NCBI GenBank assembly: GCA_964016885.1
Contig: OZ024742.1
Span: 155,062,001-155,126,000 of the forward strand
Origin: Eledone cirrhosa
Lineage: Eukaryota
Reading direction: 5' to 3'
Length of the DNA stretch: 64,000 nt
Shown: positions 1,601-38,952 of the stretch, one piece after another
Position numbering within the stretch: position 1 is the stretch's first letter
Layout of the letters: each line of letters opens with the position of its first letter
Position numbers and translations under genes: made by a program
Notes under the pieces: generated by a model
Seen by the model: the letters and a program-made list of their open reading frames with translations, nothing else
Told to the model about the DNA's origin: nothing
Databases searched by the model: none

Positions 1601-2272
1601 TTTACATATAAACTATGTTATCTTGTAGCAATTTCCAAAGATATATTTGGTGCAATGATGTCTACATGGGGTTATGAGACAAGCAATTGTATGTTGCTTT
1701 CATTAGCAATAAAGATATTCTTGAAATGTGCCTTCTTAAAATATAATTGGATATAATTTGATTGTCATTTGTGTCATTGAATTTCAATTTCATTAGAATT
1801 CTATGTTATATTTCTTGAGTTAATTTAGTGATTGTGCCACGAACCCTTTCATACCCCTAAATATTACATCCTTTATTAATTCATTATGTCACTCATTCAA
1901 TCACTGAAGTACATAACACTTTAATATTCCCAAATCTTTTCTTTCGCATCTTTGAAATAATACAATTCATCCATTTCTGCTTTATATATATCTAAACAGA
2001 AATTGTATATTAAAAGATATCCATAATATTACATATGGACTAGTTATAAAGATTGCTTGCTTACAACTGAATACCTTTCATGAACTAAATCGATGTGATC
2101 CAAAGATCAGTTCCTGTCTTATGTTATACATAATTAAAACCATTGTATCTTGACAGTTCGAACTTTCTAACTTCATAGACGTCTTTAAATTTAATCAAAA
2201 CAAATTATCATGATATGAGTATCCAGTAGCTGTGATTGTTTACGCTCAGACACATGCAGACACACACACTCT

Positions 2273-2317
<45 letters not shown>

Positions 2318-2334
2318 GCACACGCACACCCACG

Positions 2335-2400
<66 letters not shown>

Positions 2401-2730
2401 TAGGATGCATTACTAAAATATATTCAAAGATGAATATCAATACTCACGTGAAATTTCCCTTAGTGAAGTTTCAAAACGTAAGTCCGATGTCAATTATCTT
2501 AAGTAACCAAGGCTATAAGTTTCGGGGTAAGATGCTTATGACGCTAGAGATTTACTCGCAATAAGAAAAAAAATCAAGCTTTTCCTGATGAAAATCGCTG
2601 CTTAGTGGACAGGAATGTAAAAGGTACAAATGAACAAATGACAGGATTGAAGGAGTGCTAGAAAGAGTTCACCAAATACTCTGTTAGTTTTACTCAATCC
2701 CAATAGAGTATAATATAACGACCCCCCCCC

Positions 2731-2802
<72 letters not shown>

Positions 2803-2811
2803 TATATACAC

Positions 2812-2916
<105 letters not shown>

Positions 2917-3188
2917 ATATATACATATCTAAGTACGTATTTTTACTTCCACGATAATATTACACATCTCGCAGATATGACGAAAGAGAAAGTAATATTC
3001 GTTTCCCATAGCGTATATATATATAGAAAGAGGATATGGTCCGAAATAAATAGACGTGTCCGAGGAACCTGCGAGTCCAGAGTAAGGTAGATCCACACAC
3101 AGATCGCACCTCAAGCTGTTTGCCGGGGAAACAATTGTAACACACAATAAATTGAGTTCCGATGCACCACTGAATTTTCGTTTTCCAG

Positions 3189-7109: not shown

Positions 7110-7526
7110 GCAGATGTTATATTTAATTTGTTGGCATTCAATAAGCTTAAACATGTTTACAACTGGTATAAAGCACTCAACTGATATGTAGAGTAAATGT
7201 AGAATATATTAATAAATGGAAACTATATTTATAAAACCATAATTATTTTATATATTTTAAGGGCAACCAAGGTACATTATGGTGCGCTTTCATCAGATAA
7301 AATCCATATTTGTTTTATAAATAAATATTGACATACCCGTAAAAAAGACAACCTCAGCAAATTTCAACCGTTGAGGTTGTCTTTTTTCTGGGTATCTCAA
7401 TATTTATTTATAAAACAAATCTGTATTTTATCTGATGAAAGCGCACCGTAATGTACCTCGGTTGCCCTTGAAATATATAAACTAATTATGGTTTTATAAA
7501 TATAGTTTCCATTTATTAATATATTG

Positions 7527-22054: not shown

Positions 22055-22094
22055 ACGTGTGTTTCTTATTGGCAACATGACCCTCCCAAAGTAT

Positions 22095-22166
<72 letters not shown>

Positions 22167-22590
22167 ATACTTTGTGTGGGTCATGTTTCCAATAAGAAAC
22201 ACACGCATCAGTGCTTTGACTCCAATGTATTATAAATTAAATTTATAAATTTAAGAATTTATAAATTTCCGGTTGGTTGGTTGGTTCCATAACCGGACGG
22301 TTGTTCATATATTGTCAAAGTTCTTTCGTCACACATTCTGACCTAGAGGTCACATAATGTGTGACGAAAGAACTTTGACAATATATGAACAACCGTCCGG
22401 TTATGGAACCAACCAACCCACCGGAAATTCATAAATTCTTAAATTTATAAATTTAATTTATAGTAAATTTGAGTGTATCATTTGGTGCGTCTGTTTCTTA
22501 TTGGCAACGTGACCTTCCCAAAGTATAACAATATCGGATTCAACACACGTTTTCAGATAAATAATCTTGCTAAACAAATACAGAAACGAA
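22055..22590. mobile_element. Palindromic family B pLTR insert plus adjacent family B end
   Basis: Arms 22161-22345 and 22348-22532, centred at CTGACCTAGAGGTCAC inside the hammerhead. Right tail to 22590 matches 12370-12430. Confidence 0.85.
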
Positions 22591-23871: not shown

Positions 23872-24400
23872 AAAGTTTTATTTAAAATTGTTGGGTTACA
23901 ACGAGTAAATATTTTATAACCTATCTCTCCCACCTCGTATAATAGATATTACTCGATCTACCTCTTTTCTCCCACCACCTATATCTCTTTCTACCTCTCT
24001 TTATTTATTTTTTATTTCTCTCCGTATCCTTAACACTAAATAAATAAATAAATAAATAATTACAGTACCCCCTTCCCTCCTAAATCTCTCATTTGGTGTT
24101 TTCCTTTATCCATACATTTCTTCATCTTCTTCACCTTCCTCTCTAACTCTCCTTAGCACTATACACTTTCTTTTTTTATCTCCGTCTTTCTTTATAACTG
24201 TCCTTAACATTTTCACTACCATAACAACTTTTTAAATGGAAGTTGTAAAGTTTTAAGGTATGCCAAATTTATTTATAAAACTGTTTATATATTGTATTTT
24301 GTCTGAAGAGGGCATACCATAGTTTTAATATGATATCCCTGAAATATGTATAATGAAATAAATATGGTTTTAAAAATGTAGTTCCCATTTGTTTAATATC

Positions 24401-35184: not shown

Positions 35185-36554
35185 TAAAATAACAGATTAA
35201 AGTTTAAGCAAAAATCGCTGCTTTCACCCTTAACGGGATCTTCTGAAACTAACACAGTCAATCTGTAAACGCAGAAGTGGATATTTCAAAAAACGTTGCA
35301 ACCGGAGGAAGACAGGAAGACGATACTTTGGTTCGTAGAAACCTTCCCTTCACAAAACATACGGGTAATATATACTTACCTATGCAAATAAGTAATGGTA
35401 TAAACATAACATATACTTAGCTACCACATCAAGACGTAAAATATCCACGTATAGATCGTACTATCCGTTAGGGTATAATGTGATGCTGTAATCCAGGAAA
35501 GTTTTCTGCAGTTTATGTTTACAAGCCGAAATTGCCTCAAATTCTTTGTTTAAGATGTGGTCTGTGGCGTAGAGTATTTCCAGGGCCTCAGCGGCGCAGA
35601 GGTCCCATGGTCATTTATTTCCATTATACGATATAGCCCTAGCTAGGATCTCCCAGTGTAATTTATATTGGGTGTGGTTGTCTTTTAGACAACAGATATA
35701 AGCTGAAAGTGACGTCATATTCCTTCTTAGATGGTAACGAAAAGAATGGGTATGCATGTAAATACGCTGCTTGAATCTATTGGCGAATAACCCTATGTAG
35801 GCCCTACGGGACGTGGGTGTTCCAACCTTACATTTGTAAACAATGTTACTAGAGAGGTATTTCCCGGATAGGGGGCAATGAACCCGATTCCTACAATTAC
35901 AGTTAGTACTAACTACAAGGTTGCACGTGTTCCTACGGCTAGGTAGTTTAGCTAAATTTGAAGCTGTGATGTTATGCGCAATGTTAGGAGTCGTAGAGTA
36001 AGACATTTTAATAGTATTTCTATTAACAATTTTACTATATTTATGTGTAGGGGGAACATGCTTCGTAATAAGGGATAGAAAGATCTTAGCTAATTGTGTG
36101 GCCACCTCCATATTATATGGTAGGTTATACCATATAATGCGACGTGATCTATTTCTTCTAGGTCTATTCTCGTACTCTGTATATGCTACCTTATCGACAA
36201 ATCCACTGCGAGCAAGAGCTTCATTGTAATAAGTGGAATAGTCGTTGAAAATATGCTCGTTAGTAGATAGACGGGAAAGCCTCAACGAAACGTTTCTTAC
36301 CAGGTTCTTGGTTATGCTGTCAGGGTGGTTGGAATGCTTACTTATGTAATTAAGCGTATCATTCGGCTTTCTATACGGGTAATGCAAGACATTCGAAAAA
36401 CTGAGGGTAACGTCGAGGTAATTAACGACCGAGAGGTTCGCCTCAACCTGTATAGAGAGGTTGAAGCCTTTAAAGAAGGTTGTGCGTTCTTTTCTGAACC
36501 TGTTGCAAGCACCAGGGCCGCACTTAGTCATGGTCAAAAGACCATCACAAGGGT

Positions 36555-36920: not shown

Positions 36921-37328
36921 ACACAAAAAAATATATGTGCATATATATATGTATATATGTATATATATAGTGAATATATGTATGTGTATATATATATAGT
37001 GAATATCATTCCACACCTTTTATTGTTAAGATTTTTGATGTTCTATTAAGAGAACCGATTTTACTGAAAACATCGAATAATGTACACCATTTTACCAGGG
37101 GGAAAAAAATACTGGTCCACCCACACACAGACACACACACATATATACACACACACATACACACGCGTACATCAACATACAAAGAGACTTATATATACAC
37201 ACACACACACACACGCACTTCTCCGTATAAGACAAAAGCTGAAAAATATATTTTGACATGCTAAAATACCCCCCATTGCTTTCAGACACAATCTTACTGA
37301 CCATCCCAGCCACCACGAATTACTCTGC

Positions 37329-37369
<41 letters not shown>

Positions 37370-37441
37370 ACACACTTAATAGCCATTTGACACACAACGC
37401 TGCTAACCATTATCACAACATCGAACACCTTACTACTACTA

Positions 37442-37523
<82 letters not shown>

Positions 37524-37548
37524 TTGTTGTGAAAGAGTCATTTCTCAA

Positions 37549-37766
37549 TCTTGGCGCAAAACCAATTGTTTATACACATGACCTCTACCGACCAATCAAA
37601 ATTGTTTTGACCACAATCATTTTTGCTGGAGCCACATTTTAAACATAAAAACAGTCTTGGCGCAAAATCAATTTTTTACATTCACATGACCTCTACCGAC
37701 CAATCAAAATTGTTTTGACCACAAGAATTTTTGCAAATTGGAGCCACTTTTTTAACATAAAAACAG
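37549..37766. repeat. Tandem duplication of about 106-bp unit (2 copies)
   Basis: TCTTGGCGCAAA..CACATGACCTCTACCGACCAATCAAAATTGTTTTGACCACAA..GGAGCCAC..AACATAAAAACAG occurs twice. Confidence 0.9.
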
Positions 37767-37982
37767 GTAGAATTCCCAAAAGTAATCAGATCAGAGCAAA
37801 CAGCACGGACACTCTATCTCAAAATTATTTTTGAAAAGCATTTAGAAATGCGCAACCGGTAAAAACTTAAAAACTTAAAACCACAACTGAATACTAACCC
37901 ATACAATCACTAATACTCTTTTATTCCTAATTAAACCATTTTTCAACTGTGAACAATTTGTCAGCATTTTCTATTCCGTTTA

Positions 37983-38025
<43 letters not shown>

Positions 38026-38029
<4 letters not shown>

Positions 38030-38932
38030 GAGACGTATAGAGATTGTTTTAGCAAGAAGCTAACGGCATTCTATAACATATATGCGACTATAACGTCAAG
38101 ATGGGAAAAGTAGTTAACGAAAGATTTAGGAAAAATAATTCAAACTCATCTCAAAAGAGAATCAGGATACAAATTCATCCACAGAATTTAGTAAAATCCA
38201 TGGAAAAATCTATAGACCTTTAACTCATGATAAAACAAAGTTTGAAACACTTATCCTTCAATTTGGAATAACATCAAATGCTCTGTATAGTCTTAAAATA
38301 CTATTTCATGAAAACTTTCAGTGGAGATGGTCACGGTTGGAATATCATTCATCAGCAGAGCTCAACAGAAAACCAGGGCTCTCACAGTAATATAGTCCGA
38401 AAAAGGGAATTCTAAAACTGGCTAGTTCGCCTTCATGTGTATTTATGAAAAAGCACATGAGGAAAAAACGGGGCTAGTGACGTCAGGATGGAAGTGAATG
38501 TTTATTTACAAGAAATAGCAGTCAAATACATTCTGAAAAAAACTCTACAAGGAGTTCAGCAAAATAGCAATAATTATCACAGTTTTTATGAAAAAAACCG
38601 GGATTAGTCACAGATAGTTTAAGCACTCTAGGAAAAGAATCCGAGTATAAATATAAATGAGACGTATAGAGATTGTTTTAGCAAGAAGCTAACGGCATTC
38701 TATAACATATATGCGACTATAACGTCAAGATGGGAAAAGTAGTTAACGAAAGATTTAGGAAAAATAACTCAAACTCATCTCAAAAGAGAATCAGGATACA
38801 AATTCATCCACAGAATTTAGTAAAATCCATGGAAAAATCTATAGACCTTTAACTCATGATAAAACAAAGTTTGAAACACTTATCCTTCAATTTGGAATAA
38901 CATCAAATGCTCTGTATAGTCTTAAAAGACTA
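38026..38932 (-). mobile_element. Retrozyme-like partial tandem (629-nt period) in (TA)n
   Basis: 38026-38303 is repeated at 38655-38932 with about 2 differences. No long ORF. Hammerhead at the repeat boundary. Confidence 0.75.
38280..38361 (-). ncRNA. Type I hammerhead ribozyme, canonical core
   Basis: Minus strand: GCTCTG-CTGATGA-ATGA...TCAT-GAAA-TAGT attttaag ACTA-TA^CAGAGC. Stem I 6 bp, stem II 4 bp, stem III at least 4 bp. Predicted cleavage between 38286 and 38285. Confidence 0.8.
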
Positions 38933-38952
38933 TATATATATATATATATATA

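Follow-up and report, generated by a model that had tools for sequence, protein, structure and literature searches.

Hammerhead-bearing non-coding insertions in (TA)n tracts of Eledone cirrhosa belong to a large retrozyme-like family, probably copied from RNA circles

Features of the locus

We analysed a window of 64,000 nucleotides from the Eledone cirrhosa genome (contig OZ024742.1, positions 155,062,001 to 155,126,000, forward strand), in which a minus-strand insertion lies between two (TA)n tracts (Table 1). A 278-nt block at 38027-38304 is found again at 38656-38933 with a spacing of 629 nt and two differences, at 38139/38768 and 38299/38928, and the match grows to 288 nt when a TA-rich overlap is included. 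The original prediction had described this repeat (~277 nt, ~2 differences, 629 nt apart), and the (TA)n bounds that it gave are present on both sides. The type I hammerhead that it placed on the minus strand is matched by a descriptor with stems I, II and III, and the second copy of the cut site is present in sequence. The unit is numbered from 1 to 629 along the minus strand, i.e. from 38655 to 38027, with the hammerhead at 295-376 and the predicted cut after 370.

Table 1. Coordinates of the features of the insertion and its flanks in the window.
Feature	Position	Strand	Remarks
Whole insertion	38027..38933	-	907 nt = 1.44 units; unit position 352 at the 5' end and 629 at the 3' end
Full 629-nt unit in the genome	38027..38655	-	unit positions 629 to 1
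5' partial unit (second lap)	38656..38933	-	positions 629 to 352; 2 differences from 38027-38304
Predicted RNA monomer, cut-site sequence to cut-site sequence	38286..38914	-	629 nt; putative as an RNA
Type I hammerhead motif	38280..38361	-	cut 38286|38285
Hammerhead stem I	38361-38356 with 38285-38280	-	6 bp
Hammerhead core CUGAUGA	38355-38349	-	
Hammerhead stem II	38348-38345 with 38311-38308	-	4 bp, 33-nt loop region
Hammerhead GAAA	38307-38304	-	
Hammerhead stem III	38303-38288	-	5 bp in the window copy; cut after AUA
Partial second ribozyme	38909..38933	-	stem III, cut-site sequence 38915|38914, 3' arm of stem I; without core
Fixed 3' end of the family	38022..38031 (38027|38026)	-	CATT then (TA)n; putative priming site
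Internal copy of the 3'-end site	38646..38660	-	RNA continues UAUAUUUAUA; left single-stranded by the consensus fold
(TA)n target, 3' side	37986..38026	.	tail of a Penelope-like 3' UTR on the opposite strand
(TA)n target, 5' side	38934..38952	.	

The upstream repeat begins at unit position 352 and hence lacks the catalytic core, so that this partial repeat leaves the window copy with one whole ribozyme, not two. As predicted, the unit is non-coding, the longest stop-to-stop frame of the copy being 51 aa on the ribozyme strand and 83 aa on the other, and the GC content of the 2-kb bin holding it is 0.35. A change private to this copy shortens stem III from 8 to 5 pairs. With this shortened stem and only one core, the window copy is probably a poor source element. 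Its 5' start sits at a TA microhomology.

The family in the genome

The insertion is one copy of a large, dispersed and non-coding family that bears hammerheads. A genome search with the unit gave 89 matches from the best 40 of 2646 candidates, mostly 99-100% identical to the unit, which are spread over many contigs and in several cases stand head to tail. Exact patterns recovered 193 young 3' ends (at least one of them an internal junction variant) and 80 internal junctions, and a pattern for the 3' half of the ribozyme, allowing up to 3 mismatches, matched 1130 times, with 0 matches for the reversed-pattern controls. The family is thus multicopy, dispersed and retrozyme-like as had been foreseen, and the genome search found the tandem arrays with variable end points that the original prediction had proposed to look for.

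Older or sister subfamilies were reached through diverged neighbours and divergent ribozyme patterns. The identities of the subfamilies to the unit are about 100, 91-98, 83, 77 and 70%. Subfamily B (~83%) is itself young, subfamily C stands at ~77%, and subfamily D is ~72-88% identical to C and about 70-77% identical to the unit. The monomers of subfamilies A, B and C measure 626-641 nt, and the subfamily alignment is rich in non-triplet indels. No ORF is joined to the unit in any locus examined, subfamilies included, and copies that are long enough always run into another unit, never into an ORF. Two short motifs are kept across the subfamilies and paired in the consensus fold, i.e. the palindromic TGACGTCA at 38478-38485, which we take to resemble a CRE promoter site, and GTGACTA at 38605-38611.

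Ends, lengths and targets of the insertions

The informative end of these insertions is the fixed 3' end, which the original prediction had passed over. It falls on a UAUAU stretch that matches the (TA)n target, 259 nt beyond the cut. We scored 39 arrays among 40 loci chosen by the ribozyme alone, and all 39 end at unit 628/629, with TATA next in 38 of them. These 38 ends and the 82 of 132 5' junctions that adjoin (TA)n (five loci being left out of the latter test) bear out the predicted targeting of (TA)n. Subfamilies B and C have their 3' end at the same unit position, and so by tally do 20 of the 25 loci with the D pattern; among the other five, one has this end when judged by eye, two lie outside the family and two are incomplete. 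The exception is one array (L068) that ends at unit 485 instead of 629. Inside arrays the 3'-end site continues TATATTTATA, which allows the RNA to form at least 5 base pairs with a DNA end in (TA)n. In the consensus fold this site is unpaired and the stretch is closed by a conserved stem.

The 5' ends are scattered, and the insertions span 0.03 to about 6 units. For the first 100 of the 193 young ends listed, the median insertion length is 356 nt, and 59 insertions pass the cut site, 33 exceed one unit (the more-than-unit-length copies that had been predicted), 7 exceed two and 3 exceed three; 14 of the 100 are long enough for two whole ribozymes. Five of these lengths were corrected by hand and one is censored at an assembly gap. 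Since the 5' ends scatter, the start of the window copy in stem III is a matter of chance, one draw among many. The original prediction had laid weight on this start, which does not hold over the 100 insertions, where only 1 of 86 passes stops at the cut. A 5' end as the mark of an RNA end was likewise rejected on account of the scatter. We also considered the unit junction as a re-primed TA tail and rejected it, the junction being invariant in 80 matches; a junction form longer by 2 nt is found in L202, L205 and subfamily B.

Clear target duplications number two (60 and 63 nt) among 132 junctions, with (TA)n hiding the rest and a control of 24/1500 short words. Two insertions, L068 and L124, carry 5' inversions. 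The fixed internal start, partial tandems, 5' inversions and (TA)n ends agree with the Penelope-like origin that had been proposed, and the anatomy of the unit is, judging by these features, that of endonuclease-bearing Penelope-like elements.

Three further observations concern the ends. The 5' truncations number ~3-5 per kb at unit 355-186 and 629-531 (38301-38470 and 38027-38125) and ~0.6 per kb at unit 530-356, where a long hairpin is predicted, in bins picked post hoc; such phase-dependent truncation repeated only weakly in 18 later-lap ends and was dropped as evidence. Short templated duplications of the element, mixed with TA, are found at the 5' junctions of L016, L027, L049, L145 and L153, which suggests that end-joining with fill-in may have taken place there. 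At 22069-22192 and at L115 a single (TA)n run separates two facing ends of the same repeat, which is what targeting of both microsatellite strands would give.

Conservation of the ribozyme

The ribozyme structure is conserved across the subfamilies over ~30% divergence, and cleavage is predicted from it. A descriptor with the stem lengths of the window copy had 0 matches in 3000 dinucleotide shuffles of the 906-nt element, and a looser descriptor had 2 in 3000. Across 21 distinct ribozyme sequences, 96.3% of cells are paired. Both sides of a pair have changed in stem I, where the innermost pair went from G-C to A-U, and in stem II, where the second pair went from U-A to C-G, with zero both-side pair changes in slid controls, and by reading of the alignments a third such change in stem I is found in 16 of the 25 D-pattern loci. 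These compensatory changes stand for ~3 independent events, related copies not being independent, and the count of covarying pairs (2) is equalled or exceeded in 428 of 500 shuffles and is not above control. The core varies chiefly at the free position 7. In nine of the 21 sequences the first stem II pair is U.U, which is known from one axolotl ribozyme described in PMC7229834. The three-unit array L163 has GAAC in place of GAAA in every unit, a change that should cripple the ribozyme of its template.

Rfam recognised no hammerhead family in 38027-38932 at E-values up to 10; the probable reasons are the 33-nt region of loop II and the length of stem III. Its two weak snoRNA matches in the element were taken as chance, and a scan of the whole window gave only microsatellite-driven miRNA matches among the 150 of 291 matches listed. 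The folding z-scores of the ribozyme alone (0.34, -1.48 and 1.06) are not significant. The 629-nt predicted monomer folds better than 20 of 20 shuffles (z -3.35), and stem I pairs its two ends in the linear consensus fold of the family. In the minimum-energy fold of the youngest subfamily the 3' arm of stem II pairs with AUGAA of the core, an inactive register that could mean either slow cleavage or a device keeping the circle shut. For comparison, eight of nine Xenopus retrozyme dimers are reported by Li 2026 (10.64898/2026.07.22.740005) to show no cleavage in vitro.

Penelope-like elements in the genome

Many Penelope-like families in this genome end in (TA)n, and in most of them a hammerhead precedes this end by 45 or ~140 nt. 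A very young family among them, with intact elements, has a 784-aa frame with a reverse transcriptase (RT) plus a GIY-YIG domain at the C terminus, six copies that are 98.8-100% identical, and an end in (TA)n; judged by its sequence, it is a candidate for an active enzyme. A truncated copy of this family, on the opposite strand, provides the (TA)n tail that holds the window insertion, and this position shows a shared target, no more. The stretch 36931-37986 (+) is a 5'-truncated 3' UTR of the 784-aa family. Two 3' ends, separated by 39 nt, occur in this family, each with TAT after it inside tandems; a pattern search found no type I hammerhead between its ORFs.

A partner with shared sequence was not found in the Penelope-like families compared, other families being viewed only in flanks. 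Apart from embedded copies, the unit has no DNA match in 30 Neptune-type loci or in 18 loci of the 784-aa family, and an RT plus GIY-YIG ORF is absent from the examined copies of the unit's own family. The partner candidates that we tried, i.e. the Neptune-type family, the 784-aa family, ORFs in the flanks and divergent ribozyme patterns, brought up only older non-coding subfamilies.

The window and the flanks hold other Penelope-like elements and hammerheads. A 3' fragment of a Neptune-type Penelope-like element with a degenerate hammerhead ~45 nt before (TA)n lies at 35200-36550 (-); the label of its family is presumptive and is based on motifs. This family is very abundant, with 713-aa frames, which have no match in Pfam. 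At 24295-24360 (+) another (TA)n-ending family has a type I hammerhead, 49 nt before the microsatellite, with a minimal palindromic stem III and a long stem II, and a weaker one lies at about 7425-7490 (+). More than ten further hammerhead types were seen in the flanks of many loci, for example L019, L027, L050, L053, L122, L146 and L158, and most of these types have their end in (TA)n, 45-55 or 135-145 nt beyond the cut. One of them, common to L050 and L146, has a near-palindromic stem III and may belong to a second retrozyme of about 480 nt, its ends lying 77 and 559 nt beyond the cut.

Template of the insertions

The cut site is crossed without a stop or an indel nearly always. The single stop in 86 passes falls at unit 366-376, and among 178 segments crossing the cut 171 are exact, 6 have one substitution and 1 has a 19-nt deletion, leaving 177 free of indels. 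Copying moves towards the cut, where a linear monomer would end, and hence these counts point to a continuous template, circular or uncut, in line with the circular or multimeric RNA of the original prediction.

The units of an array share their variants, with 143 fixed against 7 common variants that are mixed. In 64 multi-unit arrays (16 duplicate loci and 30 Neptune loci left out) 122 shared and 21 private variants are found in every overlapping unit and 7 common variants are mixed; a further 12 private variants reach several units without occupying all of them, and 109 are confined to a single one. Older arrays diverge by 0.84% within and 2.33% between arrays, with many haplotypes, each uniform along its array. 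The divergence is equal in the young subfamily (0.447% within and 0.449% between arrays), where a noisy six-unit array weighs on the first value. In 31 young arrays of 1.x units (L160 and L063 set aside), six rare variants occur in the partial and the full copy alike and eight in one of them; the both-copy rare variants come to 0.53 per unit in these arrays, a rate equal to that of 12 longer ones (0.59). Local duplication cannot help in 1.x arrays, so their both-copy variants need another cause. A new variant does not get into both copies through copying of a linear multimer, and reading one monomer twice gives it. The remaining way out is gene conversion, and the many unconverted differences argue against its being frequent. 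The alternating or patchwork variant patterns of L113, L126 and L063 show duplication after insertion, and in L024 the units disagree at a lineage marker (T, C, C at 479), which a CpG reversion might explain. The ends show the arrays to have been, in all likelihood, mostly made at insertion.

We consider that the family is a non-LTR retrozyme copied from a circular 629-nt monomer by a Penelope-like enzyme, with a probability of roughly 0.65. Several observations weigh against this reading: the missing Rfam match and the partly hidden core of the youngest subfamily, GAAC in L163, the U.U pairs and the count of covarying pairs, the equal divergences in the young subfamily, the mixed marker of L024, the later duplications in L113, L126 and L063, the end of L068 at unit 485, the lack of a partner with shared sequence among the families compared, and the published findings on the purified Penelope-like system and on the Xenopus dimers. 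An alternative template would be an uncut multimeric read-through transcript, primed internally like the anole Poseidon, with the uniformity of the arrays coming from gene conversion and local duplication and the ribozyme acting late or only in trimming. It explains the clean cut-site junctions and the lack of stops equally well, and fits the broken core of L163, the inactive lowest-energy register and the arrays with a dimer period. The sole purified Penelope-like system also speaks for it, since Frangieh 2024 (PMC11167929) describes cleavage there as not needed in vitro, uncleaved RNA as the main template and no RNA reads as ending at the site. We still think it unlikely. A single-unit variant cannot reach both daughter copies linearly, and six such cases were found in the 31 young 1.x arrays, four of them with the variant also at other loci. 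Conversion would have to leave the 109 single-unit differences unconverted. The longest young arrays each have a different fixed variant, no young array exceeds about six units among the 80 exact junction matches, and under this alternative arrays could only shrink across generations, with the ribozyme fold kept over about 30% divergence all the same.

A second alternative is that the monomers are self-cleaved and linear, the enzyme making a precise jump off the 5' end of one monomer and onto the 3' end of this or a sister molecule while stem I, which pairs the two ends, holds them. Monomer-level uniformity would follow from this as well, and three loci resemble template switches: L024 with its mixed marker, L043 with the 19-nt deletion across the cut, and L206 with a jump from 131 to 629. 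Truncations are also commoner in the 170 nt after the cut is crossed. Such jumps would however have to leave no more than one stop among 86 passes and one indel among 178 junctions, and a pile of 259-nt insertions would be expected, yet 0 of 59 first passes end in 385-356; we regard this account as improbable.

That the unit is only the terminal repeat (pLTR) of an autonomous Penelope-like element, a local satellite or an assembly artefact has very little left in its favour: many true Penelope-like families here do have a hammerhead shortly before their (TA)n end, and a coding relative could escape searches that scored the best 40 of 2000-3000 candidates, but in the loci examined neither these readings nor a single-copy sequence came true, for long enough copies enter another unit, the copies are dispersed across many contigs, a repeat with a 3.7-4.0 kb spacing on C2 (a candidate coding tandem) has no ORF joined to the unit, and public contigs of one study (four runs, possibly of the assembled sample) hold the unit and its subfamily variants.

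Copying from a circular monomer would proceed as follows. An array with two cut sites would be transcribed, and the hammerheads are predicted from their structure and conservation to excise the monomer, which a host ligase would likely close into a circle by analogy with the coral, mussel and axolotl retrozymes. A GIY-YIG endonuclease would nick (TA)n, and the DNA end would pair with the unpaired UAUAU 259 nt past the cut. The anatomy of the insertions suggests that the reverse transcriptase would then circle the template with a ~20-40% chance of finishing each lap, the new 5' end being joined to the target mostly at TA. Some arrays grow later by local duplication, as seen in three long arrays.

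More tentatively, with somewhat less than an even chance in our estimate, the family may be the record of target-primed rolling-circle reverse transcription of a long-lived RNA circle without a detectable coding parent, whose ribozyme would have been under selection through at least five successive subfamilies and whose exposed UAUAU loop would pair with nicked (TA)n. If this is true, circles rather than uncut precursors would be the template of transposition, and the family would map the cis signals that load any RNA circle onto a Penelope-like enzyme.

Comparison with known systems

By every feature testable here the family is a metazoan non-LTR retrozyme, with cleavage and circles as predictions. 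Each of its tandem units carries a type I hammerhead motif (in the window copy one is whole and the other partial), and it is non-coding, multicopy and mobile, without a fixed LTR structure and with a GC content below 50%. The metazoan non-LTR retrozymes described by Cervera and de la Pena 2020 (PMC7229834) are likewise non-coding low-GC tandems with one type I hammerhead each and no LTRs, have a stable stem III in the invertebrate examples, and coexist with Penelope-like elements; target duplications in them are long when present, and the model given there predicts multi-unit cDNA from a circle. Our unit differs from them in its length (629 nt vs 170-400 nt), its mostly short dispersed arrays, its one fixed internal 3' end in (TA)n and its long bulged stem II. 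Circles have been demonstrated for those retrozymes and are predicted for ours.

The original prediction had taken the unit to be longer than known metazoan retrozymes. This does not hold, as 629 nt is within the 51-972 bp reported by Li, Clavereau and Pollet 2026 (10.64898/2026.07.22.740005). In that preprint most families have at most 7 units and a Penelope-like origin is proposed, with local tandem amplification of the pLTR as the favoured route and pLTR homology in 24 of 57 Xenopus families; its 35 species include no mollusc by the text. Our unit differs in having no pLTR homologue among the families compared and arrays mostly made at insertion.

Endonuclease-bearing (EN+) Penelope-like elements, as described for the Anolis Poseidon (PMC11167929) and by Craig et al. 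2021 (10.1101/2021.04.23.441226), have several traits in common with our unit: copying starts internally, downstream of the hammerhead, the copies form partial tandems, are 5'-truncated and in some cases inverted, and the targets are AT-rich or (TA)n. The unit differs in having no ORF, one start instead of two with a 30-40 nt tail (PMC11167929), and a long rather than a minimal stem III. Its start site is a match to the target, and no homology is involved in the start of the anole element.

The plant LTR retrozymes (PMC7761336) resemble the unit in their monomers of 600-1000 nt and a circle lying between two hammerheads. They are described as having a type III ribozyme, LTRs, PBS, PPT and 4-bp duplications, in contrast to the type I ribozyme, variable 5' ends and (TA)n of the unit; with its type I topology and a repeat length that varies from copy to copy, our family is not of the plant LTR type. 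According to the same 2020 review, the repeats of animal retrozymes have no motif that points to the mobilising element.

In the open-access literature, preprint supplements aside, we found no retrozyme with a mapped fixed start, a start site matching the target or copy-level evidence that a monomer was re-read, and no cephalopod retrozyme. The size of the unit is not new; its value lies in a clean genomic record of the insertion mechanism. Circles of animal retrozymes are known, and their reverse transcription has so far been only a model. With the fixed start site and the target rule of this family, its measured distribution of lengths, its variant patterns, which require that a monomer be re-read, and candidate young enzymes in the same genome, the question of circle versus precursor, and the role of the hammerhead in Penelope-type mobility, become directly testable.
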